64,000 nt of DNA from positions 24,332 through 88,331 of the IMG/VR virus record IMGVR_UViG_3300042946_000144; one strand, written 5' to 3'. Positions 1 to 40,765 of the stretch are shown piece after piece. The notes beneath the pieces were generated by a model that made no database searches, had not been told where the DNA came from, and saw only the letters and a program-made list of their open reading frames with translations. The number at the start of each line of letters is the position of its first letter. Position 1 is the first letter of the stretch. A program made the position numbers and the translations under genes. The stretch comes from a virus (taxonomy: Duplodnaviria; Heunggongvirae; Uroviricota; Caudoviricetes).

Positions 1-2753
1 CCAGGAAGTTTACCTTTTATTTTAAACTCATCACCGTTTTGAGCTTTGAATATCTCTTTACCAAATCTAGCCATTTCTGTTTGTGCTTTTTTGTCTATTT
101 TAACTTTACCCTTAGCAAGAGCATCTGCATCAATTCCATATTCTTCAGCTGTGTCATTTAATGCACTTTGTACAGAAGCAGCTTCCATTTTACTATCAGC
201 TATCTTCTTGAGTTTCATGTTCTTGCCAATTAGATTTGCTTGCAATGCATCCATCTTAAGCTTATCAAACGGTGTGTAAACTTCTATATTATCAAGAGCA
301 TCAACATCTTTGTCCAAAGACTTGCTAATTTTATCTTCTTTTTCAGAAAGACCTTTTACATAGTTTTTGAACTTCTTACCACCAGCTTGAGGAATGTATT
401 GTTTTGGAACCTTGAGGTTACCAAATACCACCATGTTGTTTTCTCCTGTTTCGCTATCTGGAAGTTCAACAGCTGGTTCACCTCTTTCCACTTCAACATC
501 TGTAACATCTTCTATACCATCTCTTCCATATTCCATGTAAGGAGAATAGTCATCCCCACCTCCATATTTAACACCTATTCCTGTTCTTCCTTTTCCATCA
601 CCTTCTTCATGGGAATTACCTCTGAACATTACAGTTTGTCCTGTTCCTGGAAGATATGGGTTTTCTGAAATAGGTTCTGCGTATCCACCCCATGTGGTTT
701 GAAGAGATCCTCCAAAGTTATATTGATCTGTAGGGAACATTTGATTTTGTCTAATGTGACCACCTGTTCTCAATGTATCCATTGTTTCATCAGGTTGAAG
801 AAGATCTTCTACATCATATTCCCCAAACTTTGTAATCACCTGTGGTTGCCAATCGTGAGAAACCCATCCACCATTTTTAACATAGGCAGAATATTGTGAT
901 TGAAGACCTTGTGCCATAGAAGCAGCTGCTGCTTTGTTTACATTTTTTTGTGTCTTTTCTTGTGCAGCTTTGATCTTTCTAGGAGCTTGGTCTAATGCTC
1001 CCCCAATTAATGAACCAGCAAGATTACCAACTGTTCCTCCTACACCTGGAACAATAGCGTTTCCAATAGCTCCTCCAATAGCTCCTCCTGCTTGAGATCC
1101 AGCATTAGCCTGAAAACCTCCACCACCAATTGCTCCACCTAAAGGACCTGCTATTCCAGAGAACGCTCCTAATGTAGAGTTTAGTTGTGACATATCTCCA
1201 CCAGTAGCGTATTGTTTTATGATATCACTTTCACTAAGTGGTTCATATCCAAGGTCTTCATACATGTCCCCAGGATTGTACATGTTCTGTATCTCTGTAA
1301 GATTGCCACCAATCTGCATACCATATTCAGCTTGATCTTGCATTTCATCTTCTGTACAGTTAGCTCCAAAACAACGTCTTTGACGTCTAATACCTTTTCT
1401 TGTTTTTCTTCTATTGTTCCATTCTTCATAAGGATATTTAATATTTTCTTTCCACCAATCTCCAAAACCATCTTCACGCTCTTCTCTAGGTTCTGCCCAT
1501 TGTGTAGGATACCATGCTGTTATAGGAGTTGTATATGATTGCACACCGTATGGATTACTCTCCATATTTGTTAGCTCACTAGGAATGCTGTGTCTCTTCA
1601 TAAAAAGAACACTAGGATTTTTTATAAATGCTTTAGCTGTTGCTCTTGCACTATTAAGATCACTAACCTTTCCAGTTCTTTCATTTTTATATTCATTAGC
1701 TGCCCCATATAATGTTTCATAAAAAGGAGCCATTCGATCATAGGCAGAAGACCCATATTCTTTTAACTTTTCATAAGTTTCATCTGTACCATTCTGAGCT
1801 TTCAGAATAGAACCATTTCTTGCCAAAACATTTGTTCCTACACCGTATGAAGGAAACAATTGCTCTGGCTGAATAATTGTATCTTCTGGTCTTACGTACT
1901 TACGTTTATTATATTCAGGCTTTAGCGTTGCAGCCTGTAATGTGATGTCACTAAGTTTAGCTTGTTGTTCAGCTCTCCTTCTCACTTCTCTCTCATCATA
2001 TAATGCTTGTATTCCACCTATAATTCCTCCAACAACAGGAATAGCACCTGTAAGTCCTGATAAAGATGATCCTTTTGAAGAAGATGATTGTGGTGTTGTA
2101 GAGGGTACTTGTGGTGTAACAGGAGCTGGGGAAGGAGCTGTAATATTGTACGATCCTTCCAAAGGTTGTGTACTGTTGTACATATAAGGATTAACTCCAG
2201 CAGTTGTAACACCTGTCATGGTTCCTGCAGCAGGGCTATTTAATCCAAGTCCTTGTTGTGTACCAACCTGAGCTTTGTTTAATTTCTTACCCTTCTTACT
2301 GATTGGAAGAGGAGCAGCTCCACCAGCACCACCCATCATAGATGCCATTTGACCAATGTTTCCAAGACTAGGCATTCCTCCACCAGCTTTAGAAGACTGT
2401 TGTTTTTGCATCTGAGCTTGTCTCTGTTGTTCAGCTTGTCTTTCAGCTTCTGTAGATCCTGTAAACTGCCTATCGTAAGAATCTCTAAATCCTTGAAAAT
2501 CAATAGGTTGAAAAGGTTGAGATGCAGGAGTTTGGTTTATGATAGACCCTATTTCACTCATGGGTATGATGTTATCAACATCACCTTCAAAGCTTGTAAG
2601 CTGGTTCAGCTTCTTTTGCTGACCACCTTGCTTATACTGCTTCAGATCTTTAGCTTCAGGATGAGCTTTAAAGAATGCAGCCTCTGAAGGATACTTCTTG
2701 TAAAACTCAGCTTCTGTCTTAACTCCTGCTATTTTTAGGAACTTTTTTACCAT
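1..2753 (-). CDS. large Gly-rich virion (ejected/cargo-type) protein; C-terminus runs off the window edge
   Basis: Minus-strand frame starts at ATG 2753 (MVKKFLKIAGVKTEAEFYKKYPSEAAFF...). It stayed open in my manual translation to position 1. Only short low-complexity antisense ORFs occur on the plus strand. Gly-rich tracts (GGAIGGGGFQANAGSQAGGAIGG) and KAQNG motifs are shared with the downstream giant gene. Confidence 0.7.
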   Translation of the reverse strand, partial: MVKKFLKIAGVKTEAEFYKKYPSEAAFFKAHPEAKDLKQYKQGGQQKKLNQLTSFEGDVDNIIPMSEIGSIINQTPASQPFQPIDFQGFRDSYDRQFTGSTEAERQAEQQRQAQMQKQQSSKAGGGMPSLGNIGQMASMMGGAGGAAPLPISKKGKKLNKAQVGTQQGLGLNSPAAGTMTGVTTAGVNPYMYNSTQPLEGSYNITAPSPAPVTPQVPSTTPQSSSSKGSSLSGLTGAIPVVGGIIGGIQALYDEREVRRRAEQQAKLSDITLQAATLKPEYNKRKYVRPEDTIIQPEQLFPSYGVGTNVLARNGSILKAQNGTDETYEKLKEYGSSAYDRMAPFYETLYGAANEYKNERTGKVSDLNSARATAKAFIKNPSVLFMKRHSIPSELTNMESNPYGVQSYTTPITAWYPTQWAEPREEREDGFGDWWKENIKYPYEEWNNRRKTRKGIRRQRRCFGANCTEDEMQDQAEYGMQIGGNLTEIQNMYNPGDMYEDLGYEPLSESDIIKQYATGGDMSQLNSTLGAFSGIAGPLGGAIGGGGFQANAGSQAGGAIGGAIGNAIVPGVGGTVGNLAGSLIGGALDQAPRKIKAAQEKTQKNVNKAAAASMAQGLQSQYSAYVKNGGWVSHDWQPQVITKFGEYDVEDLLQPDETMDTLRTGGHIRQNQMFPTDQYNFGGSLQTTWGGYAEPISENPYLPGTGQTVMFRGNSHEEGDGKGRTGIGVKYGGGDDYSPYMEYGRDGIEDVTDVEVERGEPAVELPDSETGENNMVVFGNLKVPKQYIPQAGGKKFKNYVKGLSEKEDKISKSLDKDVDALDNIEVYTPFDKLKMDALQANLIGKNMKLKKIADSKMEAASVQSALNDTAEEYGIDADALAKGKVKIDKKAQTEMARFGKEIFKAQNGDEFKIKGKLP

Positions 2754-2780: not shown

Positions 2781-5700
2781 TTACTTATATTGGTCTAACC
2801 AAGACTGAGGTGCTTTTTGGTTAACCATTTTGGTTTGTTTTGTATTACTATATTGACCACCTTTTTCAAACTTTACATAATCTTTACCAAACTTCTGACC
2901 TACATACTTCTGAAGTGCTTCTTGATTTTCTAATAATGCTTTATCAGGACTGTTTAATGCATCATGTTTGTAAGTGGTAAACTTTCCTTTGTTCATAACA
3001 CCAATCAAACTGTTTCCTGGACCATATACAGGATCTCCTCCAGGAACTCCTGGACTATAAGACATTTCCACTTTGGAGGCAACTGCAGCAGGTGTTTGTG
3101 TTATTTTAGAAGAAGTTTGCTGAGACTGATTATCAAGTAGAACAGATTCTGGAGTTATAGATTTTTTAGTTACCTTAGGTTCTGGTTTTTTCTTTTCTAC
3201 AGGTGTAGATTTAGTTGTTTTCTTAGACCCATATTTCTTTTCCCACTCAGCCTTTTCCTTAGGTGTTCTCATATTATACGGCTTTATGGCAAGTGGATCA
3301 TAATCATACACAACAACATTACCTCCAGGATATCCGCTTCCTACAGGACTATATGAAATTTTTGATTGTGGTTTTATACGCTCATCATACAATGCAAATG
3401 GAGAAGCTAAGTTTTGCATAGGGGTTATCAAATCTCTGTAGTAAGCTTGATGATTGTTTTTATGTTGACTTTTCTTCAATCCTCTTTCTTCTAATAGTTG
3501 AAGTTGTGGTGGAAGTAAGTTAAAGTATTTATAATAAAAATCATCGTACATACCTTTATTAAAACGATTTCTTCTTTCAGTTTCACCTCTATAAAATTTT
3601 AAATTTTCATCATTCAGTTCTGAAGCTTTAGCTAAAGCAAATTTATCTTTAACAGCATCTTTTTTAATTCTACCCTTTTTCATCTCATCCTCATAAAACT
3701 TATTTAAAGCAATTTGAGCATTGAATAAGTTTAAGCTATCTGTTGTTGTTGGAACATTAAGTCCCTTTTGAGCCTTAGTTACTCCTCCGTACATCTGATT
3801 AGTGGGTGTTTGGTCAAGTGGGAAATATCCTTCATCAACATATCTTTGATAATTAGAAACACCCCCTGGCATTTTGTTATACACATCTAATACATCTGTA
3901 GCACTAATCTTAGTTTGTTTAGGGAACTGTTTTCTGTAGAAACGCATAAAAGGATCTACGTTTCTAGTATCTGTGTTTCTTAAAAACTCCCCTGTCTCAG
4001 GATTAAAGTATTGTCCATATCTCTCAGGTTGACTAAACTGCACACTTGTTCTACCAGCATCTCTGTTAGCAGCAACAAGCATGTTAAAATCAAGACCTGG
4101 GTATTTATCTTTAATTAATTTAAACTGTTCTTTTAAAGCTTTCTTATCTTCTTTATCAAGACGAGTAATATCTTGCCATTCAGTCAGTTGCTCAGGACCT
4201 TTTTCTTTAGCTAGTTTTCTCAACTCTCTTGCTGCCTCAGCGTTCATTGCAGCATCATGCTTAGTTCTTCCACAAGATCTACGAACTTCTTTATTAGTTG
4301 ATCCAGTAGGACCAAGGTCCATATACTCAAGGCCGTTTTGAGCTTTAGTCAATCCTCCATTTCTTTGTTGTGGAGTTTCGCCATCTTCCTCCATAAGGGC
4401 TTCTGCACCAATACCAACTCCTGCAGCAGCTGGAAGTTTATTAAACAAGTTAGATAGACCAGACATTTGATCCTTGCTCGAAGGGTTTGCAAAACTTGAT
4501 ATTCTATCTTTTGGATTTTCTTTTACAAACCTACTCATTAAGTCTGGATCAATAGGATCATATATATTTTTTATATACCCCTTTTCCAACATAGTCTGTC
4601 TTGTCTCTCTCATATGAGGTATAGCCTCGTTTAATTTAGGTCCATTTGCTTTTGCAAAATACTCAATTGACGATTTACCATATTCTGGAAGAGAATTGTA
4701 TCCTGGATAATTTTTCAGATTAGATGGTGTATAATTATTTGGACTCAATCCAAATATTTGTCTTGCTTCAGAACTAGACACCCCTCCTCTATTACCAACC
4801 ATGTTCTCTAACCAATGTCCAAGTTCATGTTCATATATAGCTTCTGGAGACATCTCCATACCATATTGTTTAGCAATGTTTACATCACTAGGATCTATAT
4901 TTATTCTATTATTATACGGATCATAATGAGATCCAGAACTTTTTGTTTTTTGTTTAGTAAACCTTGCTCCAGGGAAAGTACTAATTTCTGGTAAGTTTAA
5001 ATACTTTTCAGGATTTTCTGAAAACTCTTCAAACGTAGGTTCAGACAAAAGTTTTTTAGTATACTTTGTATTATATAAACGTTTCAAAGCTTCTGGATCC
5101 TTAATTCTATCAAATAGTCCAGAGTGATATTTTTTTATGTCTTTGATTTGTTTGGCATACTTGATTGGATGATATAATTCATAAGCAGCATTTCCAACAT
5201 CTAGTCCAAAAGCCTGTACAGGTTCTTTTACTATTTTTTCAAAAGATTTTGATAACTGATTTTTTAATCCAGGAATTTTCATAGCACTTCCTAAAGGATC
5301 AAATCCAAAAGCTCCTTCAATAAGAGGAGAAGCAACAGCTGATAGATAGGGCATAACAGAACCTGACTGTTGAGCTTCATATGGAGCTGTTCCTAATCCA
5401 CCTGCAGCACCTGTAATCCAGTTAATAGGGTTTGCAAAGTCATCATACCAAGCTTCTTCATCTTGATTAAATCTACCTCTTTGTTCGAGAGCTTTACCAG
5501 AGACATACAGTTTTTCTGTAGCACTCATGTCATCATACTTCTTTGTTTCTCCTGAAGGTAGCTTAAAGGCAGATCCTTTATCTTTAGCAGCAACAGCAGA
5601 TTTTCTTTCAGACACTCTTCTTTTTTCTTCTTCCTTCTCAAACTTTTTATACTTTCCCATATCTGAAGTAGCAGCAGCAACATCTTTTTTGCTTTGTCCA

Positions 5701-7337
5701 GTTGTAGCTGTACTAACCATTCTTTTTGTAATAGGATCAAACACCATTCTACTTGTAGATTCAGAAGCTGCTCTAGGTGCTTTAAAGTCCGTTACTCCTG
5801 GTATATTTAAACCAGTTTGAGCCATAGGAATTATAGAACCATCTTCACTGATTGTCTTAGGGTTCCAATCTAGTCCATGTTGGTAGTAGGACATTGAGCC
5901 ACCATTCTCTTGTTTAAGAACATTTTTATCAATCAAGTGTCTAGTCAAATTTCCATAAAACTCATCCATGGAAGTGTCTCTTTCAGTAGTGCTATGATCT
6001 TTTATAAATTTAGCAGTGAGTTTACCTTGATCTACTTTTCTTTTATCACTTGGTGATAGTTCTTCTGTATACCAAACTTGACTAGGATCTTTTACTTGAG
6101 TTATTTGCCAAGCAGGTCCTGTAGTAGTTACCATAGGAGCTTCTTTCTGCAAATGATCATAATAGTAAGAATCATATCCATCGTCTCCTCTATTTACACT
6201 ATACCAATCTTTATAGTCTTGGTTCATGTAATTTAGATAGTTCTTAACATAATTTCCATTCTGTGCACTGGGCATTGTCTTCTTTGCATAAGGACCTTCT
6301 GAAGGAGCAGGACTATTCGTACGTGCGTACATGAATCCTACAGAACCAGGAAGAGATGCTCCGTTCATAGCTGTTAGCACTGACTCAGAACTAATTCCTC
6401 CAGGTACACCATCATACAATTTTCCTTGGTTTAATAAGTTTTCAGAAACATTAGCCTCAGGGCTGGTGTAATTGGAAACTATAGAATCACCATATATTGG
6501 AGTTGCGTTCTGTTCTGGTGAGGTTGTAGGAATTGTGTTTCTGAAAAATCCCCCCATAGCAGTTGTTCTTCCAAACCCTGGTATACTAAGTTTGTTTTGA
6601 AAGTAGTCAAAGTTATTGAAGTCATTTTCAAAACTAGGAGGAATCATATTACCACCAAATAAACCACCAGAATTAGTATTTACATCTTCTGAGTTGTCAT
6701 CTATTTCATTCTTTTTCTTCTCACCTCTTTTTAGCAATCTCTCAGCTCTTCTCTCAGCTCTTCTTTCTTTTCTTTCATCACCTTTTCCCACTCCTAAAAA
6801 ATCACCAATACCACCAATCAATCTACCAACACCACCTTGTTGTCCTGAATAACTAGAGTCACATATATTCTTTGGGCAACTAAATCCTCTTTGAGCTTTT
6901 GTAACTTTTCCACCAATATCAAATTGTCCACCCCATGCTCCGTTGTAATTAAATCCTTGATCGGTTAAACCACCCATTGTTCCCTCTATACCATTCTCAG
7001 CTTTAGGGTTGTATTTATCAAGCCATCCTCCTTTTTTGAAATCTTCAGGTTGCTCAAGATCAGGCTGGAGTCTATAATCACTTGTAAGTTCTTCTCCTTT
7101 CTTAATAGGTTTAATTGCAACCAGGTGTCTTTCATTTCCAACAAGAACGTTTTGAACATTTGGATTGTTACTATGATTGTGATTCCTTCCAAGATCTGTA
7201 AAGTCGTAATCTGTATAAAGTTGATTGATTGTATGAACCTTACCTATAGGATCTCCAGGAGCAAGATTTTTCTTAGAGAAAACCCCTTTGCCTTCAATCT
7301 TACTTTTACCAACTCGATAGTTTTTGTTCTTTGCCAT
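2781..7337 (-). CDS. 1518-aa polyvalent virion protein: N-terminal SET-domain (protein-lysine methyltransferase-like) plus internal HExxH zincin motif
   Basis: The N-terminus carries three SET signatures: GKGVFS (GxG), RNHNHSNNPN (NHSxxPN-like) and EELTSDY (ELxFDY-like). YEHELGHWLEN (HExxH) lies at about 4812..4829. Gly-rich linkers are present. A GG(K)[VL]TKAQ[RNK]G motif repeats three times. Confidence 0.75.
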   Translation of the reverse strand: MAKNKNYRVGKSKIEGKGVFSKKNLAPGDPIGKVHTINQLYTDYDFTDLGRNHNHSNNPNVQNVLVGNERHLVAIKPIKKGEELTSDYRLQPDLEQPEDFKKGGWLDKYNPKAENGIEGTMGGLTDQGFNYNGAWGGQFDIGGKVTKAQRGFSCPKNICDSSYSGQQGGVGRLIGGIGDFLGVGKGDERKERRAERRAERLLKRGEKKKNEIDDNSEDVNTNSGGLFGGNMIPPSFENDFNNFDYFQNKLSIPGFGRTTAMGGFFRNTIPTTSPEQNATPIYGDSIVSNYTSPEANVSENLLNQGKLYDGVPGGISSESVLTAMNGASLPGSVGFMYARTNSPAPSEGPYAKKTMPSAQNGNYVKNYLNYMNQDYKDWYSVNRGDDGYDSYYYDHLQKEAPMVTTTGPAWQITQVKDPSQVWYTEELSPSDKRKVDQGKLTAKFIKDHSTTERDTSMDEFYGNLTRHLIDKNVLKQENGGSMSYYQHGLDWNPKTISEDGSIIPMAQTGLNIPGVTDFKAPRAASESTSRMVFDPITKRMVSTATTGQSKKDVAAATSDMGKYKKFEKEEEKRRVSERKSAVAAKDKGSAFKLPSGETKKYDDMSATEKLYVSGKALEQRGRFNQDEEAWYDDFANPINWITGAAGGLGTAPYEAQQSGSVMPYLSAVASPLIEGAFGFDPLGSAMKIPGLKNQLSKSFEKIVKEPVQAFGLDVGNAAYELYHPIKYAKQIKDIKKYHSGLFDRIKDPEALKRLYNTKYTKKLLSEPTFEEFSENPEKYLNLPEISTFPGARFTKQKTKSSGSHYDPYNNRINIDPSDVNIAKQYGMEMSPEAIYEHELGHWLENMVGNRGGVSSSEARQIFGLSPNNYTPSNLKNYPGYNSLPEYGKSSIEYFAKANGPKLNEAIPHMRETRQTMLEKGYIKNIYDPIDPDLMSRFVKENPKDRISSFANPSSKDQMSGLSNLFNKLPAAAGVGIGAEALMEEDGETPQQRNGGLTKAQNGLEYMDLGPTGSTNKEVRRSCGRTKHDAAMNAEAARELRKLAKEKGPEQLTEWQDITRLDKEDKKALKEQFKLIKDKYPGLDFNMLVAANRDAGRTSVQFSQPERYGQYFNPETGEFLRNTDTRNVDPFMRFYRKQFPKQTKISATDVLDVYNKMPGGVSNYQRYVDEGYFPLDQTPTNQMYGGVTKAQKGLNVPTTTDSLNLFNAQIALNKFYEDEMKKGRIKKDAVKDKFALAKASELNDENLKFYRGETERRNRFNKGMYDDFYYKYFNLLPPQLQLLEERGLKKSQHKNNHQAYYRDLITPMQNLASPFALYDERIKPQSKISYSPVGSGYPGGNVVVYDYDPLAIKPYNMRTPKEKAEWEKKYGSKKTTKSTPVEKKKPEPKVTKKSITPESVLLDNQSQQTSSKITQTPAAVASKVEMSYSPGVPGGDPVYGPGNSLIGVMNKGKFTTYKHDALNSPDKALLENQEALQKYVGQKFGKDYVKFEKGGQYSNTKQTKMVNQKAPQSWLDQYK

Positions 7338-8206
7338 TATTTATAGGAGATTTGACTAGGTGTAACAATGAATTGAGAAACAAGATGAGCATCTGAGCGG
7401 TTATCAAGAATATGTCTCACCTTGAGATCTTTTGCTCTTAGAGGTTCCTTCTTAAAGGATCTCTTGCTGTAGTCCATATTAGATTGGTTTACCACTTTAT
7501 CCACAGATAAATTTTCGCACGAATTTACAAAAAGAGGAACTGATTTGTTTCTTACAAGGGACCAAAATGTATTGTATTGATAGAAGTTATCACTCTTTGT
7601 ATACGTAATCACTTTACTATCAGCGTTATATACAGGATACTTCATGTATTCCTTTAGGTTATGTTTTGGTTTTGGAGCTAGTTCAAGAACTCCTGTAGAC
7701 TGCTGTCCGTTATATAGAACAGCTTTGTTAAACCAAACATCATCCACCTCTATCTTATTAGGTTCTTCTGCAAATACCTGTGTACCATTTATGTATTTAT
7801 ATGTCTTTGTATAGTCTTTTACATTCTGTAAAATCTCATCCATATACTGGTATGCAAATGGATATTCTATTACATACGGTTGTGTAGTTCCGTAGAAGGT
7901 GTTGTATATCTCTGGGTTCCTTAAATGAGACCAGATGCATCCTGTATTTATTTCCTCATAAACAATAGCCGCTATCTGGTTCAAAGGAGTTTCAACAATC
8001 TTCAATCGTTGAACAATATTACAACTATCCTTTGACTTTATTACAACAAGAACAGCATTGTCTGAAACATTTATAGATCTTCCAGATATAAGATTGTCTT
8101 TTGTAATATTGTCTGCTAATACATTTCCAATATTATCCTCAATGACAAATGGTCCAACAGATTTTCTGCTGGACTTTGTCAATTTTATGAGTATTGATTT
8201 AGACAT
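7337..8206 (-). CDS. hypothetical virion protein (289 aa)
   Basis: ORF in the structural operon; ATGA overlap with the downstream gene start. Confidence 0.55.
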   Translation of the reverse strand: MSKSILIKLTKSSRKSVGPFVIEDNIGNVLADNITKDNLISGRSINVSDNAVLVVIKSKDSCNIVQRLKIVETPLNQIAAIVYEEINTGCIWSHLRNPEIYNTFYGTTQPYVIEYPFAYQYMDEILQNVKDYTKTYKYINGTQVFAEEPNKIEVDDVWFNKAVLYNGQQSTGVLELAPKPKHNLKEYMKYPVYNADSKVITYTKSDNFYQYNTFWSLVRNKSVPLFVNSCENLSVDKVVNQSNMDYSKRSFKKEPLRAKDLKVRHILDNRSDAHLVSQFIVTPSQISYK

Positions 8207-8218
8207 TCTTTGTTATAT

Positions 8219-11200
8219 TTAACTTGTACAGAGTAGGATATCAATAATTAGTCCAGATCCATTACACTCATACACGTACGATCCATTTGAATAGAATCCA
8301 CTAACTGATACAGGAACAGTTAATGTTAGGTCTGTATAAATTATACAACCTAGTGACAAAGGAATACATGCTGGGTTTACGTAGTAAGCTATTTGAGATG
8401 CTGTACATGCTATTACATCAGTTGCACCATACCCCAAGAATATTCTTGTTCCGAATATAGTGGTTGATGTTGTTGTGGTTGTATAGTTAGAGCATGTAGA
8501 TATTTCAGTGATCACTCCTCCAACAACATGGAATACAGTTCCTATTAATGTTATGTCGTTAACAAAATACCAACCATCACCTATTGTATCACAATTAGTA
8601 ACTCCAACTCCTCCAAGATATACATTGCTTCCCACAGTTAATTGTGGAATAGACACTACAAATATTTGTGGAGTTGCACCACTTTCAAATACTGCTCCAA
8701 CAGCTGTACATGCATCATTGAAAGTTAAGCTTGATATAATTGATGGTCCTGTTGTAGGAGAATATCCATAAACAAAAGAATATACTTGCAAGTTTGTAGG
8801 TCTTTGACAAGGTGGAGGGATAGGTGGTTCTGTTATGTAAGCAACCCCTTCGATTGTACAGCCAATGATTTCAGCTGTTCCTGCAATTGTACAATTAAGA
8901 ACTGTTGTAGTGGTAGTTGTTGTACCAGGTCTTTCTGTAGAAGTGGTAGTAGTTGTTTCCTCAGGAGGAGTTACGACTGTTGCTAACACTTCAAAAACAG
9001 AATCATCACAGCATGAATTAATTCCAGAATAGAAGAAGTTGTTCTCAGCTATATACCAGTTAGGGATGTAACTGTGGAAACTAATCCAACTTTTTGAGTT
9101 GATTCCATAAGAAAGAGTCCAAGATTTATTACAGAAGTATTCAGGATTTGTAACATCCACTACCTCTCTAATTGTAAATTCACCATTTCCTATAGATCTA
9201 TCTATATAAAACTCTCTATTTACACTATCGTATTTTACATTCTTTTCAGGGAATGGAACATAGTCAAGTTTTGTTATAATCACTCTATCATACTTACTAT
9301 CATAGGTTCCGTGTAAACCTATTCCATTTAGATGATTGTCTATATTTACCTCAGGGAAATGTTTCAGTATTTTAAATGCTAGGTGTTCTACAAAGAATCT
9401 ATTCATACCAGAACCAAAAGCTGAAATGTCAATAGCTTGTGTTCCAGATATAATAAACACTTGTCCACGTTTAGCATCAACTGTAACCTGTCCTTGAGGA
9501 ATTTTCAGGAGCATTTTGTTCTGACTTCCTACATAACCAAGATCTGTTTCTGCAAAGTCAATAGGAGGTGCAGATGAAAACAACTTATTGTTTCCAATAT
9601 AAGCAGCCTGAGGGTTACTTGTATCAATTGTCAATAAGTTATTGTAAAGCAATGTCTTATTCTCAAATCTTGCAAGAATTGCCTTATTTTGAATACCATC
9701 CAAAGAAGTGAGTTTTCCGTAGTTCTGAGGGAAATCAAAATATGAAACAGGACGGTATATTAACCATTCTTCACTATCTGAATAGATTGCTCTGAATGGG
9801 AAATTTGTAAAACAAAGCTTATCTTCCCAATCTACAGGAAGGTGCGTGAATGCATTTTCTTTATTCTGCTTAGAGAACGTAACATTATAATAGTATGTAT
9901 TGTCCTGAGCAATTGTTACATTGTTTTCCTGTAACCAATCATCAGGAATATCTGTACTAACATGTGGCCAGAAGTCACCTTCTTTATTATTGAATGCCTG
10001 ACGAAGATCTGTATTTATAGAAGTTTCACAATAGAATGATGGAATTCCATAAGCAAACAAATAGAAATATCCATCGTAGAACATTCTATTTGGATTGTTA
10101 TTAGTTACTCCCTGTGAATTAGGACAGTCAAAGTTATGTGCCTTATATGAAATAAGATTTGGCATAACAGATGATACATCATTTCCATTGTTATAATTCA
10201 AGATGTAATCCTTTGTAACAGACCTTGCAGAGTGCCAGTATTTAGGATAGGCAACATTACCAATCTCATCATAGAAAATGTCTGAATCATCGGGAGCGTT
10301 TACACGGTTATCTATGAAGAAAGGAATCTTCACCTTAAATGCAAACTTACTAATGAATGTATCTCCTCCAAATACGGTGCTTGGGAGGTTTTGTGTTTTG
10401 GTCAATAGTCTTTGGAAACCTGTATCGATTGTTTCATAAGAATAAATCTGACCCCACTGATTTACAAATATGTTCTTGAGAGAAGCATAATAGGAAAGAA
10501 CATCAATCTTATCCTGTCTTGCAGGAACATCACATGCAGACCTTTCAGATATTGTATATCTAGACTTATCAGAAACAATAGGTATTCCTGTTGGACTGAT
10601 AGAAGGTTGTGTGTATGGATAACCTAAAGGAGGAACTGGAATGTTTGCTGAATAGTATTTTAAATCACTTTCCGTGATTATTGTTGAAACATATGGTAGT
10701 ATATCTAACGGAGTTGTTGTAGAATCAAAAGTTTCACACTTTCCTGCTCTGATTACTATAGATGCTGTTTGTAATGTTGTAGGATCAGTGTATGAAAATA
10801 AAGCAAATGGAGGAAAAAATCCAGAAGGAGATTCCGTATTGCATATCTCATATGTTCTATAAGGAATTGTAAAATCCCTAACATCATCTGTAGTTTTTAT
10901 ATATACAGAAGATTCTCTGTTAAAGTTGTTAATAGGATTGTCATCACCAACAGCTTGAACTCCAGGAATTAGGTATTGAGCAATGTCAATAGGTCTTTGT
11001 TTAATTCCTGCATTATCTTTTATTTCTCCAGAATAGTTATAAGAAGCAATTGAGTTAAATGAGTATGCAAAGTTTCTTCTTGATATTCCATTTAAGTAGA
11101 TTGCTAGATATGCTTGATATGCTGCGAAGAATACAGCAATATTAAAAGGATCTGTTTCCGAGGCTAGTCTATCGGATGAATCTAGAGCATCTCTTTGAGC

Positions 11201-13786
11201 TTCTTCTGACAAGAGTCTATATCTAGCATTGTCATTAACTTCTACATCATGTGATTTTCCAGCTCCATATATAACACTCTCAAGCTTTAGTACATTGCCT
11301 AAGAATGGTTGTCCAAAAGAAGTCTCTGGAGAATTAAATACCATTCTATATTTAGAACCATTGTCAGCAAATGCGTCTAAAGGATTTGGTGTACAAAGAT
11401 CATAACCAACTTCGTTTACAAGTGTTATTTCAAAGTCTGATAAAGAACCATCTATTCCTCTTGGATAGAAAATTGAATTAATGTAATATTCTTGGTATTC
11501 ACTTACTTTAACCTGTTTTCTAATTTCATTAAATCTACCAGTTGCAAATGTACTTGTTGGACAGCAAACATTTGAAGGATTTGTTACACATACATCACAA
11601 TTTGGTATAGAAATTGAAGTTGTACATCCAGTTCCCCTAGGATCATATATTCCATAAATTGCAAGTATTATTCCAGGGTTACTTTGAGTTCCTTTCCATT
11701 TTATAAGATATTGACTGTATGTGTTAGATCTCATACATGCCTTACCGCTAACTATAATAGGAAGATCAAGAGAACATATATCTTTTGTATCTCCATAGTT
11801 TTCAATTTTTACTCTCTGAGTCTTTTCTGTAAAACAACTTAAAAACTCTACAACTGTATTATCTGCATATGCCGTTATTGTAAAACTTCTGCAAAAGAAG
11901 TTCGTAGTGTTTGTTGCTGTTATATCAGCAGTAAAAGAGTTTGGTTTATCTAGAATAAACGGATCCTTGTTAAGATCGTTGTATGGGTAGTTGGCAAAAT
12001 AGTATTCTGTCTCATCCCTATCATACTTACCAACGTTTCTTAGAATACCTTTTGCTACAATTGACTTGTTTGTACCTCTGTTTCCTCTTACAATCTTAAA
12101 CCCTACAATTGCTTGCTTTTGTTCATTTGTAAGAGAAGACTGTTGGATTAAAGTTTGTATTTGAGAAGGATCGAGTTTAACACCAATTGGGAAAACTGCA
12201 TTAGATCCCATCACCATGTTATTAGCTCCAGTGAATAGCTTTGATTCAAATATTGGAGAAACACTTACATCTGGAAACTTATGATGTCTGATTGGTTGAT
12301 TTGCAAGATTTCCCCAAACTTCTTCATTACAAGGATAGACCTCTGTGGATTCCCAATATGCAAACTCTCCATATTTGTATGGAGTTGCATTTCCAATGTT
12401 TATATCAATAGCATCTCCCAACACTCTTGCAGTGTTGTATATCTTCCAATACGGACTATACCCAATTCCTGTATCAGGATCAACTCTATCAGGATCACCT
12501 ATGAAGTCTGGGTTTGAATCTGAAACATCTGCAAACGAATCATCATAATCATTCTTTGCTCTACCAGGAATATGGAAACCATCTGTTTGTTTACCATTAT
12601 CCAATAAGAAAACAATCTCAAATGCATACACCTCATCACGCAGGTAACCGCGTAAGTTTGTTGCATTTAGCTCATCAGAATATGTTTCTGTCTCAGGAAT
12701 TTTATACGTTTGCCAATATAAGTTTATATCATTGGCAATCTTCTGATAGTTGATTCTATCAATAGATGTTAGATTGTCCCATACAAGAATATCTTGTACA
12801 GCTGTAACATCCTGTGCAATTTCGTAATATGGGAATTTCTCAAAAATGTCTTCAATTGTCAGACGAATCTGTGTAACATTCTGTCCTGTATAGGTGATTT
12901 GCTTGTTACTCTTATCTATAAAATATGTACCAACAAGTTCAACAGATGTTATATCATTCACTGTTTTTACAACAGCAATGTTGAAATATTCATAGTATCC
13001 TGTAATATCAATTTCAGAAATGTCTATGATGATTGATTTTCCAACTAGGTAGTTGAAGTTTGGTGTTGTTAGGTCTGGGTTTGCAATAGGAGTTGGGTTT
13101 GTGACAGAATAGTAGGAAGTATATCCACTTCCTTCAGCATCACAATACTGAATAGCAAACTGATATGTACCAGCTGTAAGACTTCCGCCTGTCTGAATAT
13201 CAACAACGTTAAGTTGAGGAATTGAGAAGAGGGGTTGAAGTTTTAATCTGTTACAATCAATCTCAGGAATAGTCTCACCATCACAAACGTCCGAACCAGG
13301 CTTAACCTTATATGGAATTTCTGTAAGATCTAAAAATCTTCTAGGGTTTAGCCCATCTGTCCAATATACTTCCGTAGAGCAGTTTGTTATTCTGTGTACG
13401 GTTTTTAATATAGGATAGTTTATGTTGAAGTTTAAACAAGAAGCATTTATATATGTATGGTAGACACAATCATTGTTCTCCATAAATCCAATCTCTGAAT
13501 CTCCTGATATAGGATTAGAGAGGAAGAATACATGTTTATTTTGCTCGTAGATAGAATGGTGTCCTATCAATCTATATCCCTCAGGAAACTGAACACAGAA
13601 TTCATTTCCTTGTTCATTTTGATAGTTTACAATGCTACCATCAAAGTTTTCCAAAGATGCATTTAATGCATAAGTAAGTGCCCCCTTAGGAACTTGATTC
13701 ACGGTGTTATCCATGTTCAATCCTACGGTGGCAGTATTATATTCTGCTCTTATGTTGCCTTGATTAGTTGTTTCTTCTCCAGCCAT
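8219..13786 (-). CDS. giant structural protein (1855 aa); tail hub/baseplate or receptor-binding candidate
   Basis: Very long ORF downstream of the tail fiber genes. C-terminal poly-Thr linker (PPEETTTTTSTERPGTTTTTTT) followed by a Cys-rich domain. No enzymatic motif recognised. Confidence 0.6.
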   Translation of the reverse strand: MAGEETTNQGNIRAEYNTATVGLNMDNTVNQVPKGALTYALNASLENFDGSIVNYQNEQGNEFCVQFPEGYRLIGHHSIYEQNKHVFFLSNPISGDSEIGFMENNDCVYHTYINASCLNFNINYPILKTVHRITNCSTEVYWTDGLNPRRFLDLTEIPYKVKPGSDVCDGETIPEIDCNRLKLQPLFSIPQLNVVDIQTGGSLTAGTYQFAIQYCDAEGSGYTSYYSVTNPTPIANPDLTTPNFNYLVGKSIIIDISEIDITGYYEYFNIAVVKTVNDITSVELVGTYFIDKSNKQITYTGQNVTQIRLTIEDIFEKFPYYEIAQDVTAVQDILVWDNLTSIDRINYQKIANDINLYWQTYKIPETETYSDELNATNLRGYLRDEVYAFEIVFLLDNGKQTDGFHIPGRAKNDYDDSFADVSDSNPDFIGDPDRVDPDTGIGYSPYWKIYNTARVLGDAIDINIGNATPYKYGEFAYWESTEVYPCNEEVWGNLANQPIRHHKFPDVSVSPIFESKLFTGANNMVMGSNAVFPIGVKLDPSQIQTLIQQSSLTNEQKQAIVGFKIVRGNRGTNKSIVAKGILRNVGKYDRDETEYYFANYPYNDLNKDPFILDKPNSFTADITATNTTNFFCRSFTITAYADNTVVEFLSCFTEKTQRVKIENYGDTKDICSLDLPIIVSGKACMRSNTYSQYLIKWKGTQSNPGIILAIYGIYDPRGTGCTTSISIPNCDVCVTNPSNVCCPTSTFATGRFNEIRKQVKVSEYQEYYINSIFYPRGIDGSLSDFEITLVNEVGYDLCTPNPLDAFADNGSKYRMVFNSPETSFGQPFLGNVLKLESVIYGAGKSHDVEVNDNARYRLLSEEAQRDALDSSDRLASETDPFNIAVFFAAYQAYLAIYLNGISRRNFAYSFNSIASYNYSGEIKDNAGIKQRPIDIAQYLIPGVQAVGDDNPINNFNRESSVYIKTTDDVRDFTIPYRTYEICNTESPSGFFPPFALFSYTDPTTLQTASIVIRAGKCETFDSTTTPLDILPYVSTIITESDLKYYSANIPVPPLGYPYTQPSISPTGIPIVSDKSRYTISERSACDVPARQDKIDVLSYYASLKNIFVNQWGQIYSYETIDTGFQRLLTKTQNLPSTVFGGDTFISKFAFKVKIPFFIDNRVNAPDDSDIFYDEIGNVAYPKYWHSARSVTKDYILNYNNGNDVSSVMPNLISYKAHNFDCPNSQGVTNNNPNRMFYDGYFYLFAYGIPSFYCETSINTDLRQAFNNKEGDFWPHVSTDIPDDWLQENNVTIAQDNTYYYNVTFSKQNKENAFTHLPVDWEDKLCFTNFPFRAIYSDSEEWLIYRPVSYFDFPQNYGKLTSLDGIQNKAILARFENKTLLYNNLLTIDTSNPQAAYIGNNKLFSSAPPIDFAETDLGYVGSQNKMLLKIPQGQVTVDAKRGQVFIISGTQAIDISAFGSGMNRFFVEHLAFKILKHFPEVNIDNHLNGIGLHGTYDSKYDRVIITKLDYVPFPEKNVKYDSVNREFYIDRSIGNGEFTIREVVDVTNPEYFCNKSWTLSYGINSKSWISFHSYIPNWYIAENNFFYSGINSCCDDSVFEVLATVVTPPEETTTTTSTERPGTTTTTTTVLNCTIAGTAEIIGCTIEGVAYITEPPIPPPCQRPTNLQVYSFVYGYSPTTGPSIISSLTFNDACTAVGAVFESGATPQIFVVSIPQLTVGSNVYLGGVGVTNCDTIGDGWYFVNDITLIGTVFHVVGGVITEISTCSNYTTTTTSTTIFGTRIFLGYGATDVIACTASQIAYYVNPACIPLSLGCIIYTDLTLTVPVSVSGFYSNGSYVYECNGSGLIIDILLCTS

Positions 13787-14693
13787 ATCTGTTTACTCTA
13801 TTAGGAAGTTCATACATGTTGAATCTATTCAAATCATTCTTTATTCTTCTCTGCTTTGCATAAGCATCTTGCTTCTTGATTTCTATATCAGCCATGATGA
13901 ATGCCTCCTCAGAGAGCTGCTTGTAATATGCAAGCTTTGCCTGAAGTTGTTGGAATGTCTCATCGTTTGTTTGATTTGTTAAGGTTTCAAACACCTTGTA
14001 TTTAATGAATGTCTCAACATATTCTCTGATACGATAGTTATCAGGAATCATCTGATTACCTGCACCATCATATTCTGTTGCATAGAATATTAAATAAACT
14101 GTTCCGTTTCTAAAGTTTGTTACAAACTTATTATCTCTAATATCAAATGAATCCGCAGAAGAACTTCCAAGATTCTTACAATCCAGAGCACAATTTGCTC
14201 TTACAGAAATGTTTCCTGGTTTTAAAAGATACTGCTTTGTGATAGTAACTGCAGATTGATTGTTTGTTTTGTAAACAGCCTGAATAAGTTCTGGCATACA
14301 TGTTCCTGCACATTCAGGATTGGTGCATGTAGGATTGTTGCAAGGAGTTCCTCCAATTGTCAGAGGGCTCACTTGTATTGTTGTAGCTGATGCAGATTGT
14401 GTGTATAGAGAGTTTGGAGTTTGGAATGGATAACCATCAACATGTGTACAAAGCCAAGCTTCTCTTACAGCAAAGAAGTTATCTGGAAGTCTTGCTTCAA
14501 AGTCTTCAATATGTAATATCTGCTCTGCAATAACGTATGTAGCCCTACCTAGTTTTCTCAAGCATTTGTCAAGATAGGTGGGAAACATAAGATCATCTAC
14601 TGCTCCTGTATCAAAGTAGCTCTTAAGCTCTTCCTTTACAGTGGAATAAACAATCTCTGGAGATGTAAAGTTATATTTGTAATAGTAGCTCAT
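13764..14693 (-). CDS. hypothetical structural protein
   Basis: ORF 13764..14744. Start probably the internal Met (MSYYYKYNF) at 14693, which avoids overlap with the upstream stop. Confidence 0.5.
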   Translation of the reverse strand: MSYYYKYNFTSPEIVYSTVKEELKSYFDTGAVDDLMFPTYLDKCLRKLGRATYVIAEQILHIEDFEARLPDNFFAVREAWLCTHVDGYPFQTPNSLYTQSASATTIQVSPLTIGGTPCNNPTCTNPECAGTCMPELIQAVYKTNNQSAVTITKQYLLKPGNISVRANCALDCKNLGSSSADSFDIRDNKFVTNFRNGTVYLIFYATEYDGAGNQMIPDNYRIREYVETFIKYKVFETLTNQTNDETFQQLQAKLAYYKQLSEEAFIMADIEIKKQDAYAKQRRIKNDLNRFNMYELPNRVNRYGWRRNN

Positions 14694-14703
14694 TTTCTTT
14701 GTT

Positions 14704-15177
14704 TTATTTTTTCCATTCCCTGTACATATGCTGATATTTATCATCAGCCTTTATATAGTGTGAGAGAAGTCTTGATGTTGTTCTTGATGGTTTAAAATAC
14801 CAAAGTTCTGTATGTCTAAGTCTTGCAGAATCTTTGAACCACATCCATCCAAAGAAATAACCTTCAGTGTGGTAGTTGAAATTATAAATAATCTTTCCCT
14901 TTTCTCTTGTCTTTTGCCAATCTACAGGAAGATTTACAAACTCGTTATTCAATCCTATCTTCTTTCTTCTCTTCTTCTTGTTTACAGAAAACTCACCAAA
15001 ACCAAAAGGGAGCTTTGCTTTCTCCCCTGATTCAAGAATGTATTCTTTAAAAGCATCATTGAAGGAATAGATGATTGTTCTCCATTCATCAAATGTTAGC
15101 TTTATTGAGGGATTTTTCTTGCAAAAGCTTTTGTAGTTTTCAACACTTGCAGATCTCCAATCTACTTTAACTCTCAT
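14704..15177 (-). CDS. hypothetical protein (157 aa)
   Basis: ORF; 1-nt overlaps with its neighbours. Confidence 0.5.
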   Translation of the reverse strand: MRVKVDWRSASVENYKSFCKKNPSIKLTFDEWRTIIYSFNDAFKEYILESGEKAKLPFGFGEFSVNKKKRRKKIGLNNEFVNLPVDWQKTREKGKIIYNFNYHTEGYFFGWMWFKDSARLRHTELWYFKPSRTTSRLLSHYIKADDKYQHMYREWKK

Positions 15178-15905
15178 TATTTTCCGTTTGGTGCATTACT
15201 AGCCTGTCCATCCACTCCATCATCAGTCATATCTGTTTTAACTTGGAAGTATGTAGACAGGAGTTTTTTAGATGTTAGTTCCAACACTTGACTTTCCAGG
15301 TAACCAGGAAGTGCGAAGTCTTTGTCTAAAGGATTCTTGCACCATTCCTCATTGGTGGGCTGTGGTGTACCACAATCACATTCAGGATACATCACCTCAT
15401 TAGGAACATCTTGTTCGAAGAATGCAGAAATTCTAATTGCATGCATTAATGGGTTGCTTATGTATAAGTAACCATTCATAATCCAATAGTAATGTTCCTT
15501 CTTGATTATTGGGAGCTTAAGAAGATTTACATATCTATTCACTGTAATCTCTTTGAACTTTGTTCCCATTCCTCCCATAGCATTGATTGAATAAACTCCC
15601 TGTATAACATACTGATAATTTCCTTCAGAAATGCGAGGGAGCTTGTATCTACTTCTTGCTATTGTGCATTCATCAACATATTCACAACATTCAGAAATAG
15701 GAACTTCCACCATCTCCAAACAGGGAATGGTGGTAAATAGTGTGTTAGTTGCCCAAAGTTTTCTTAGGTTTGTTTCTCGTTTTACAAGAAGAAGGGTGTT
15801 GTTTCTGATCTCAGAAGCAATCACTCTGTCTGTGATTAGACTGTCTGTAGAAAGCAACTTGTGCATGCTACGTACATCTGAAACAAGTTTTCTAAGTGTT
15901 GACAT
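15177..15905 (-). CDS. hypothetical structural protein (242 aa)
   Basis: ORF in the operon; Cys-containing. Confidence 0.5.
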   Translation of the reverse strand: MSTLRKLVSDVRSMHKLLSTDSLITDRVIASEIRNNTLLLVKRETNLRKLWATNTLFTTIPCLEMVEVPISECCEYVDECTIARSRYKLPRISEGNYQYVIQGVYSINAMGGMGTKFKEITVNRYVNLLKLPIIKKEHYYWIMNGYLYISNPLMHAIRISAFFEQDVPNEVMYPECDCGTPQPTNEEWCKNPLDKDFALPGYLESQVLELTSKKLLSTYFQVKTDMTDDGVDGQASNAPNGK

Positions 15906-17176
15906 TATAAATACTGTTTGAATATATTTGTCATACCATCAAGCAGATCTATCATAAATGCTGTCACTTCTCCTTTAGAGCATGTGTAGCCATTTTTATC
16001 ATCCCATTGACTCTTAGCATTTGAGAATGCTGGGATTTGATAGAACTTGATTCCGTTAAAGTCTTGAGATAACTCATGATGTTTATCTCCTGTAAAGATG
16101 TAATAGTTGTTATGATTTGACCATCCATCTTTAAATTCCATAGGGAATATTCCTGCGAGCTTTGAAGGTTTGATAGCATCTCCGTGGTTAAACATCATTG
16201 CTGATGATCCGTAGGAAATGTACTTCCTATACTTAGGACTGTCATCAAATTTTAATCGAGAATTGCTTCTAAAAAACGTTGATAACCAATTAATTAGATG
16301 CCATCCTACAAACTCATCATGGTTCCCTGGTACATATATCACTTCAACTTCCCTGGAAGATTGAAGCATCAGTGTTATCATTCTAATCTCATGTTCACAA
16401 ACCATTCTGAATGATTCCTGATAAGATGTAATATTTGTTTGAGGAGTTCCTTTTGTTGTGGCATTTGTCCACTCACTGTTAAACTCATCAGAACCAATTA
16501 CATATACAATCTGATCGAGGTTGTTTGACAATCTTGCTTGAGAGATGATTGTTTCTGTCTTCTCAATGATTTTTGCAAATCTATCCTCCATGTTATTCTC
16601 ACCATCAACATCATGTTTGTTTAGGTGAGCATCTTGTTTGTTGATAACAAGACAACCATACGGTTTAACTGGCTCTATCTTAGGAAGCATTATGTCCTGA
16701 GAAGCTGGTTGATATTCCTTTAGAAACTCAACAAACACATCTTGGAACACTTGTTCTGTAGATTTCTTATTGAGCCAAGCTTTAACCTGCCAGTGTGGTG
16801 TAGAACTATTTCCCCAATAGTTCTGTACATATTTTGTAATTTCCCATTTAGAAGTGTCAATGTTACACTTCTCAATAAGATCGTCTAAACTTCTAATTTC
16901 ATTAGGGGTATTTAGAACAATCTCCCCAGTGCCCCTGGAGAGATCTTCCTCATACTTTACAATCCTTTCTTCTAGATCACCTATGTAATTAGCTGCTTCA
17001 GCCTCATTATTCAAACTTTCTCGATGTTTCAATTCCTTCATAAGCACTTCAACATCTTCTTCTGTGGTTCCTAGCTTTTCAGCATAGAACTTTTTACTCT
17101 TTTTCCACTGTAACATTTGTTCCAGCTGGAAGAGTAAATGCTGGTTGTTTGACATATGTAGTTTGTTTATTGTCAT
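15905..17176 (-). CDS. calcineurin-like metallophosphoesterase with N-terminal coiled-coil
   Basis: Motif series QDAHLNKHD (DxH), VIGSDEF (GDxxD variant), VPGNHDEF (GNHD/E), NHGD and GDKHHE. Confidence 0.55.
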   Translation of the reverse strand: MTINKLHMSNNQHLLFQLEQMLQWKKSKKFYAEKLGTTEEDVEVLMKELKHRESLNNEAEAANYIGDLEERIVKYEEDLSRGTGEIVLNTPNEIRSLDDLIEKCNIDTSKWEITKYVQNYWGNSSTPHWQVKAWLNKKSTEQVFQDVFVEFLKEYQPASQDIMLPKIEPVKPYGCLVINKQDAHLNKHDVDGENNMEDRFAKIIEKTETIISQARLSNNLDQIVYVIGSDEFNSEWTNATTKGTPQTNITSYQESFRMVCEHEIRMITLMLQSSREVEVIYVPGNHDEFVGWHLINWLSTFFRSNSRLKFDDSPKYRKYISYGSSAMMFNHGDAIKPSKLAGIFPMEFKDGWSNHNNYYIFTGDKHHELSQDFNGIKFYQIPAFSNAKSQWDDKNGYTCSKGEVTAFMIDLLDGMTNIFKQYL

Positions 17177-40692: not shown

Positions 40693-40765
40693 GGGTCTAT
40701 AGTTAAATGGATATAACCACAGCCTTCTAAGCTGTTGTTCCTAGTTCGATTCTAGGTGGACCTAC
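40693..40765 (+). tRNA. tRNA-Arg (anticodon UCU)
   Basis: Acceptor GGGTCTA/TGGACCT (two GU pairs). D-stem GTTA/TAAC. Anticodon stem ACAGC/GCTGT with loop CTTCTAA. T-arm CCTAG-TTCGATT-CTAGG. 73 nt, no encoded CCA. Confidence 0.85.

Follow-up and report, generated by a model that had tools for sequence, protein, structure and literature searches.

A very large protein that joins a SET protein-lysine methyltransferase module to a probable zincin-like HExxH domain is encoded in the virion gene block of an uncultured crAss-like phage, in IMG/VR virus record IMGVR_UViG_3300042946_000144 (Caudoviricetes). The window analysed here is the stretch of 64,000 nucleotides from position 24,332 to position 88,331 of that record, and coordinates below refer to the window unless stated otherwise. 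The gene lies at 2781..7337 on the minus strand, as an uninterrupted open reading frame (ORF) with an ATG start that encodes 1518 residues followed by a stop codon; the identical 1518-residue protein is present on four of the contigs that were read, and the longest contig on record is 111 kb. We assign a probability of roughly 0.6 to the reading that this is a polyvalent cargo protein, packed into the virion and expelled on infection, in which the SET domain would methylate lysines and the zincin-like domain would process proteins or attack them. A first-pass annotation made from the letters of the DNA had proposed the SET fold, the HExxH motif, the phage structural operon and the polyvalent pattern, and this proposal is upheld as far as computation reaches (Pfam, structural model, conservation, and synteny).

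The N-terminal SET domain

The SET domain (residues 4-100; 7038..7328, minus strand) was recognized by Pfam, by phmmer searches of the PDB, by alignment invariants, and by AlphaFold modelling followed by Foldseek. In the Pfam scan, PF00856 (SET) scored 29.6 bits against a gathering cut-off of 22.4, and phmmer against the PDB matched the SET domains of MLL1 and of PBCV-1 vSET at E ~4e-4. The three SET signatures that the first-pass annotation had noticed near the N-terminus are present in canonical order, all on the minus strand: GKG (G16-K-G18; 7284-7292), NHSNNPN (N54-H-S-N-N-P-N60, thus N54-H-S-x-x-P-N60; 7158-7178), and ELTSDY (E83-L-T-S-D-Y88; 7074-7091), the last with the catalytic tyrosine. 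Across 14 homologous modules (59-81% identity; 15 aligned modules in all), residues G16, G18, N54, H55, S56, P59, E83, and Y88 are invariant, and the homologue alignment also has an invariant C-terminal flank, RLQPDLEQPEDF (7038-7073, minus strand). The AlphaFold model built from the homologue alignment has block-mean predicted local distance difference test (pLDDT) values of 85-96 across residues 21-90. When this model was compared with the PDB using Foldseek, the top 50 matches were all SET or PR domains, with vSET (3kma) the best at E 4e-5, and the top matches in BFVD were SET proteins. Because the Pfam score, the PDB phmmer matches, the ordered invariant motifs, and the AlphaFold and Foldseek results agree, the module is firmly assigned as a SET protein-lysine methyltransferase of minimal size (~100 residues) with intact S-adenosylmethionine (SAM)-binding and catalytic motifs, and with predicted activity. 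BLASTP also aligned the SET region with residues 436-495 of crAss001 gp45, in its portal-binding domain (E 0.1); this was set aside as a chance match, since the SET-module profile scored it at 0.8 bits.

The best structural match, vSET (A612L; 3kma, 1n3j), is 26% identical to the target over 89 columns. Both SET domains are minimal (~100-120 residues), virus-encoded, and without a Cys-rich post-SET region. PBCV-1 vSET is carried in the virus particle, and it represses transcription in the host through methylation of H3K27. It is, however, a free protein of 119 residues from a eukaryotic virus with a histone substrate, whereas the SET domain described here heads a bacteriophage protein of 1518 residues, has ~18 fewer residues between GxG and NHS (manual count), and has its own C-terminal flank.

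The zincin-like HExxH domain

The central part of the protein (residues 690-1000; 4338..5270, minus strand) carries a conserved HExxH motif, and its model resembles zincin peptidases only weakly. The motif, HELGH, occupies residues 837-841 (4815-4829, minus strand); the first-pass annotation had placed it about 830 residues into the protein at 4812-4829, and the motif and its conservation stand whereas the coordinates are corrected. Given the composition of the target, an HExxH would occur by chance in 1.3% of cases. Nine homologues with 27-38% identity (ten sequences including the target) all keep H837, E838, and H841, and in the same nine homologues E904, E911, R913, and Q914 are invariant within a downstream 'HLREMRQ' helix, which in the target corresponds to a putative third-ligand helix, EAIPHMRETRQ (residues 904-914; 4596-4628, minus strand). 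Because the two histidines, the glutamate, and these downstream residues are invariant in the nine homologues, HELGH is regarded as a conserved site and not as a chance occurrence. In the domain model, HELGH falls in the predicted helix 142-159, and E904 and E911, which lie inside or just beside predicted helices 63-70 residues past HExxH, are candidate metal ligands.

The first-pass annotation had suggested profile searches and structure prediction as checks. The resemblance of the model to zincins is weak, and no curated family is above threshold: Peptidase_M91 reached 15.1-17.8 bits against a cut-off of 25, and no other curated peptidase family was matched. Since no Pfam peptidase model reaches its threshold, the identification of this domain as zincin-like is weaker than that of the SET domain, and we consider it probable. 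Outside the SET domain, the HExxH domain included, the target has no family match in Pfam, PHROGs, or NCBIfam.

By profile-profile comparison, the zincin core is linked to gp42 of Cellulophaga phage phi17:2 (probability 51%, E 1.5e-4) over the core GS.Y..N.I.D...HE..H. This protein is the sole cultured-phage protein with a detectable link to the target; it is annotated as a 'tail protein' and is encoded in the virion gene block directly after the phi17:2 muzzle homologue. Homology of the domain to phi14:2 gp65 was unsupported (profile comparison, probability 0.1%), and a match to phi14:2 gp70 was faint and confined to the E..P...EMR helix (E 0.046). The profile of the zincin alignment gave only chance matches to chalcone synthases in the PDB, and only two uninformative fragments in a set of 5.8 billion proteins.

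Genomic context and the cargo slot

Judged by its genes, the window is that of a crAss-like phage, the host of which is probably a member of the Bacteroidota. According to the terminase, the closest cultured relatives are Leptolyngbya phage Lbo-JY46 (40% identity) and the Cellulophaga phages phi17:2 and phi4:1 (32% identity). The minus-strand block includes genes for the large terminase subunit (TerL), the portal, and the major capsid protein, together with the ring proteins and the muzzle, in agreement with the earlier description of a SET gene within a phage structural operon. On a longer contig with the identical target, the gene order is ring protein 2, IHF-like protein, ring protein 1, muzzle, 289-residue ORF, target, and then proteins of 1303, 902, and 4350 residues.

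In crAss001, the cargo proteins C1 (gp45) and C2 (gp46) directly follow the muzzle (gp44), and are in turn followed by giant RNA polymerase (RNAP)-associated proteins; both the cargo proteins and the giant RNAP-associated proteins were found in crAss001 virions by mass spectrometry (Bayfield et al. 2023, PMC10172136). The target likewise lies between the muzzle gene and giant genes, as Crassvirales cargo genes do. Because the crAss001 cargo genes directly follow the muzzle as the target does, the target is placed in the cargo slot, this evidence being positional. The target and crAss001 gp45 and gp46 are also alike in their many Gly-Gly motifs and seemingly flexible regions, whereas gp45 and gp46 have no HExxH and gave no match to the SET profile.

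The muzzle homologue is a protein of 1855 residues (8219..13786, minus strand) that matches crAss001 gp44 collinearly in BLASTP (E 1e-6 and 5e-5), and its counterparts in two sister contigs (L082 and L083) match Pfam crAss_MUZ. An initial reading of this neighbour as a virion RNA polymerase was ruled out by these gp44 and crAss_MUZ matches. The 289-residue ORF between it and the target (7337..8206, minus strand) aligns to the C-terminal part of muzzle proteins that are encoded by a single ORF (L084 and L085); the muzzle gene thus seems to have been divided between two ORFs, here and in the two sister contigs. The stop codon of this ORF is overlapped by the ATG of the target (TAATG). The 289-residue ORF also matches the C-terminal end of phrog_15100.

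A family with exchangeable modules

A search of 5.8 billion proteins identified 380 homologues at E<=1e-3, with lengths of 850-2400 residues, all of them metagenomic. Most of these relatives match the target only at residues ~100-150, 320-375, and 480-520. Precomputed Pfam domains in the relatives are SET, ADPrib_exo_Tox, ART-PolyVal, GNAT, YkuD, SprT-like, and LysM with Amidase_2. In two relatives that hold the slot of the target, and that on their own contigs both follow ring genes, muzzle, and an ORF of 274-289 residues, the domains are an ADP-ribosyltransferase (ART) with LysM and Amidase_2 (P0112) and YkuD with SET (P0028). The SET module itself is found in 22 relatives (61-85% identity), in an N-terminal, internal, or C-terminal position. 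This exchange of modules in a hypervariable slot and the mobility of the SET module agree with the first-pass suggestion that the protein is built in the manner of polyvalent proteins. In two more divergent lineages, too, the gene after the muzzle encodes a SET-headed protein (1713 and 2196 residues), with recognizable conservation confined to the SET domain (~44.5% identity).

The SET module is also widespread beyond these relatives. Its profile matched 2687 of 1.84 billion cluster representatives at E<=1e-3, 428 at E<=1e-10 (clusters at 50% identity), and 41 at E<=1e-30. Among 139 further representatives, the SET domain is N-terminal in 89 (proteins of 300 residues or more), C-terminal in 14, and internal in 11, while the remaining 25 are proteins of <300 residues; the three SET motifs are kept in 119. 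UniProt carries the automatic annotation 'SET domain-containing' on a few uncultured-phage proteins, one of which (971 residues) is 44% identical. Our literature search found no paper on SET domains in virion proteins of phages, in crAss proteins, or in polyvalent proteins, and the sole match to 'SET domain' in the crAss001 paper is a 'C2-set' immunoglobulin.

Several further arrangements of the SET module were observed. IMG/VR phage proteins (L004-L047, L050-L065, L022, and L068-L076) carry the same module with an invariant QPDLEQP flank. Among these, the module follows a DHH-phosphoesterase-like domain, as the C-terminal part of proteins of ~700 residues; lies at residue 235 of proteins of ~1000 residues that by eye have HxGH nucleotidyltransferase-like and KxDG ligase-like motifs; or is encoded by stand-alone ORFs of 113-174 residues, some on contigs of 106-229 kb. 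In P0030, P0023, and ORFs of the L004 type, the SET domain is followed by a conserved region of ~110 residues (...PQKDGYR[ST]YSP[FY]K[DN]L.YI.V....D..NIV.DL.L.G...) without a Pfam match, a possible partner domain for the SET modules of this clade.

Junction and tail motifs

Two short motifs recur at the edges of the modules. The first, GGWL[DNS]xY (GGWLxKY), is the C-terminal tail in 111 of 121 family proteins. It also has 173 internal copies in the family as compared with one in shuffled sequences, and 52% of the internal copies are followed within 20 residues by A[QE]xG, against a background of 5%. In the target, an internal copy with the same motif as the family tail, GGWLDKY (residues 103-109; 7011..7031, minus strand), directly follows the SET domain, and the protein ends in SWLDQYK (residues 1512-1518; 2784..2804, minus strand). 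By manual count, GGWLxKY follows the SET module in 13 of the 22 SET-bearing homologues, and in P0112 copies of it separate the Zn-ribbon, ART, and LysM modules.

The second motif, AQxG, occurs at five sites in the target, all on the minus strand: 6885-6896, 6255-6266, 5811-5822, 4332..4343 (site 4, AQNG, residues 999-1002), and 3762-3773. Five copies of AQ[NKRTV]G compare with 0.11 expected, and none of 20000 shuffles reached five. Three more are encoded in the next ORF, and the remaining 16.5 thousand residues of protein encoded by the window have none. The family consensus at these sites is [VIM]-P-x-A-Q-[ND]-G (PxAQNG).

Three linkers (all on the minus strand) are shared widely among the 120 homologues: L1 (residues 100-151; 6885..7040), which runs GGWLDKY..AENGIEGTMGGLTDQGFNYNGAWGGQF..AQRG and is covered by 54-107 homologues; L2 (residues 331-361; 6255..6347; GSVGFMYARTNSPAPSEGPYAKKTMPSAQNG), covered by 100-116; and L3 (residues 478-509; 5811..5906; NGGSMSYYQHGLDWNPKTISEDGSIIPMAQTG), for which 103 homologues cover the 481-500 bin. 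The L3 motif also precedes C-terminal SET modules in relatives. Residues 108-125 of L1 have pLDDT <50 in the model and look unstructured. The sequences GGWLDKYNPKAENG and IIPMAQTGLN are candidate cleavage stretches.

SET-headed representatives fall into groups with different tails, of which GGWLDKYN is one; those of other lineages (P0126-P0264) end in RRGGWIVEEY or GYIVEELD, KLNKFIR, NSLGLLD, and KKILKNIK. Such group-specific conserved tails suggest lineage-specific C-terminal incorporation signals. Boundary motifs and a shared tail are therefore read as possible docking or processing signals for plugging different warheads into one slot, and GGWLxKY and PxAQNG would mark module boundaries, act as docking or processing signals, or both. 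Fused virion polyproteins of crAss phages are 'likely cleaved', and the virion proteins of crAss phages include one that bears a zincin and was proposed as the cleaver (bioRxiv 10.1101/2020.03.07.982082).

The middle region (residues 520-690; 5268..5780, minus strand) is moderately conserved and covered by ~40-58 of the 120 homologues, and within it residues 634-679 are weakly hydrophobic and Gly-rich; no confident transmembrane helix was found in the target (Kyte-Doolittle, 19-residue span, maximum 1.21). A conserved C-terminal region (residues 1193-1400; 3138..3761, minus strand), covered by ~20-26 of the 120 homologues, has no recognized fold and no match in Pfam, PHROG, or NCBIfam.

Comparison with polyvalent proteins and other virion enzymes

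The polyvalent proteins of phages and conjugative elements (Iyer et al. 2017, PMC5512222) resemble the target in being very large multidomain proteins that combine a zincin-like HExxH domain with an unrelated enzymatic effector, and for them, too, delivery with the DNA is predicted. Their domains are shuffled, as in the family of the target, in which relatives carry ART-PolyVal, ADP-ribosyltransferase, lysozyme-type, and SprT domains. In that paper, the zincin peptidase is the hub domain, with the processing of polyvalent proteins as its proposed role. The hallmarks ArdC-N and DNA adenine methylase, as given there, were not detected in the target, which is counted as polyvalent by architecture and not by a common diagnostic domain: it has at least two unrelated effector domains (SET and zincin-like), and domains are shuffled among relatives in the same slot. 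Neither 'SET domain' nor 'lysine methyl' nor 'protein methyl' appears in the text of that paper.

Other large virion proteins share single features with the target. Phi14:2 gp65 and the C1 domain of the N4 virion RNA polymerase (vRNAP) also place an HExxH domain in a very large protein of the virion gene block, and these zincins are proposed to process or activate co-packaged proteins; between the crAss-like and N4-like zincins and the domain of the target, which matches no Pfam family, phi17:2 gp42 is the only detectable link. T4 Alt and other packaged ADP-ribosyltransferases are carried in the capsid, injected, and covalently modify host proteins at the start of infection. The role predicted for the target is similar in concept, and ADP-ribosyltransferase heads are found in the same slot of sister phages, whereas the chemistry differs (ADP-ribosylation as opposed to lysine methylation) and there is no homology between T4 Alt and the target.

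Proposed function and alternatives

Under the reading of the target as a polyvalent cargo protein, it would be made late, loaded into the virion, and expelled via the tail ahead of or together with the DNA, as gene position and synteny suggest. The SET head would methylate lysines once it has reached the cytoplasm and its supply of SAM; candidate targets are the phage IHF/HU-like protein and host proteins of the nucleoid, transcription, translation, or defence. The zincin-like domain would cut the polyprotein at the conserved junctions, or attack host proteins. The motifs would let a lineage plug different warheads (SET, ADP-ribosyltransferase, GNAT, YkuD, amidase, or SprT) into one slot. The presence of the histone-like IHF/HU-like protein in the same operon as the SET enzyme makes it a speculative substrate.

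Several observations weigh against this interpretation. Searches of 50,697 deposited phage genomes gave no relevant match to the target (tblastn with the whole protein, with SET plus linker at E<=1, and with the zincin domain at E<=10; megablast with 25 kb). BLASTP and profile comparisons detected no similarity between the target and crAss001 gp45 or gp46, or phi14:2 gp65 and gp67-gp70. The mean pLDDT of the SET model is only 72, and residues 1-14 are poorly modelled. The peptidoglycan-directed heads of orthologues (amidase, YkuD, and LysM) show that proteins other than cytoplasmic effectors can occupy the slot. Lastly, packaging is predicted from gene position.

It is also conceivable, if unlikely, that the target is packaged and that its SET domain acts in the producer cell or the assembling particle on the phage's own proteins, and not on the host after injection. 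The substrates would then be co-packaged cargo, the capsid interior, or the IHF/HU-like protein, and methylation could protect proteins from host proteases or from defence sensors, or adjust how the DNA is condensed. As the product of a late structural-operon gene, the enzyme would share a SAM-containing cytoplasm with all virion proteins; among these, the cargo proteins are Lys-rich, as is the IHF/HU-like protein encoded two genes upstream of the muzzle. Self-modification would not, however, need an enzyme tethered to a cargo protein; the slot otherwise holds classic host-directed toxins such as ADP-ribosyltransferases, and the substrate of packaged vSET is host chromatin.

We consider it quite unlikely that the target is instead a structural protein that works at the tail tip or in the periplasm without ever entering the cytoplasm, in which the SET domain is only a binding or structural module, and in which the zincin, like the amidase and YkuD heads of orthologues, works on the cell envelope during penetration. 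The LysM, Amidase_2, and YkuD domains of orthologous slot proteins would fit such a role, as would the annotation of phi17:2 gp42, the only linked cultured-phage protein, as a tail protein, and the suggestion of Drobysheva et al. that the crAss zincin might digest peptidoglycan (bioRxiv 10.1101/2020.03.07.982082). On the other hand, SAM is unavailable outside the cytoplasm, and the invariance of the SAM-binding and catalytic SET residues in the family, with the motifs also kept in most of the distant representatives (119 of 139), would be unexpected for a purely structural role; moreover, no fibre, spike, or receptor-binding domains were found in the target by Pfam, PHROG, or NCBIfam.

That the target is a non-packaged, late, soluble multi-domain enzyme that acts on the host and adjoins structural genes by happenstance is very improbable: although it has no detectable similarity to crAss virion proteins verified by mass spectrometry, its place between the muzzle and the giant downstream proteins is strictly kept across divergent lineages, it is translationally coupled, at its start codon, to the muzzle fragment, and the lineage-specific C-terminal tail common to 111 of 121 family members is as expected of an incorporation signal.

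Returning to the target as an injected polyvalent cargo protein, a broader claim may be made only tentatively, and we think it somewhat doubtful: that SET-headed giants constitute a widespread, undescribed class of injected lysine methyltransferases in crAss-like phages of the Bacteroidota, which would act in the first moments of infection on host or IHF/HU-like proteins, with GGWLxKY and PxAQNG forming a modular loading and processing code that is cut by the embedded zincin and allows any of various warheads to be exchanged in a single capsid-cargo slot.

Other features of the window

The neighbours of the muzzle and the target are all on the minus strand. Ring protein 2 (15177-15905; Pfam CrAss_Ring_2) and ring protein 1 (13764-14744; Pfam CrAss_Ring_1) flank the gene for the Lys-rich IHF/HU-like protein of 157 residues (14704-15177), which matches phi14:2 g073 ('IHF subunit', E 3e-18) and crAss001 gp42 (HU/IHF-like, E 1e-8). 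Just before the ring genes, the tail block encodes a protein of 423 residues (15905-17176) that matches phrog_704 ('DNA repair exonuclease'); the corresponding position of phi14:2 holds g075, a 'Calcineurin-like phosphoesterase/Metallophosphatase'.

On the other side of the target, positions 1..2753 encode the first 917 of the 1303 residues of the next cargo-type protein, with Gly-zipper segments and the three AQxG motifs mentioned above. An alternative genetic code, considered for the seemingly ORF-free region 1-2780, is unneeded, as this long minus-strand ORF runs off the window. The full 1303-residue protein is encoded on another contig (L080, 4705-8616), and has Gly-zipper hydrophobic segments, as in crAss001 gp45, together with a weak tape-measure-like PHROG match; it has its own conserved tail, GRNGRIVKAMKGF, common to P0020, P0021, and P0026.

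At the switch from the minus-strand structural module to the plus-strand module there is a tRNA-Arg gene (anticodon TCT; 40693-40765, plus strand), and the GC and AT skews both reverse sign at about 40 kb.

Implications

Injected phage enzymes that ADP-ribosylate, methylate DNA, or transcribe are known, and we found no report in the literature of phages using protein-lysine methylation as a weapon injected into bacteria. Another polyvalent protein would by itself be unsurprising, whereas a lysine methyltransferase injected into bacteria, the size of the family, and a modular boundary code are unreported in the literature that we found; the GGWLxKY and PxAQNG motifs and the frequency of the SET head are also additions to the first-pass annotation. 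The junction and tail motifs predict cleavage sites and an incorporation signal, and could serve to load foreign proteins into crAss-like capsids. The family provides a handle on a question that concerns crassviruses generally, namely the role of their large load of virion cargo. If the target is active, its family, which is common in metagenomes, would introduce a new kind of chemistry into the first seconds of infection.

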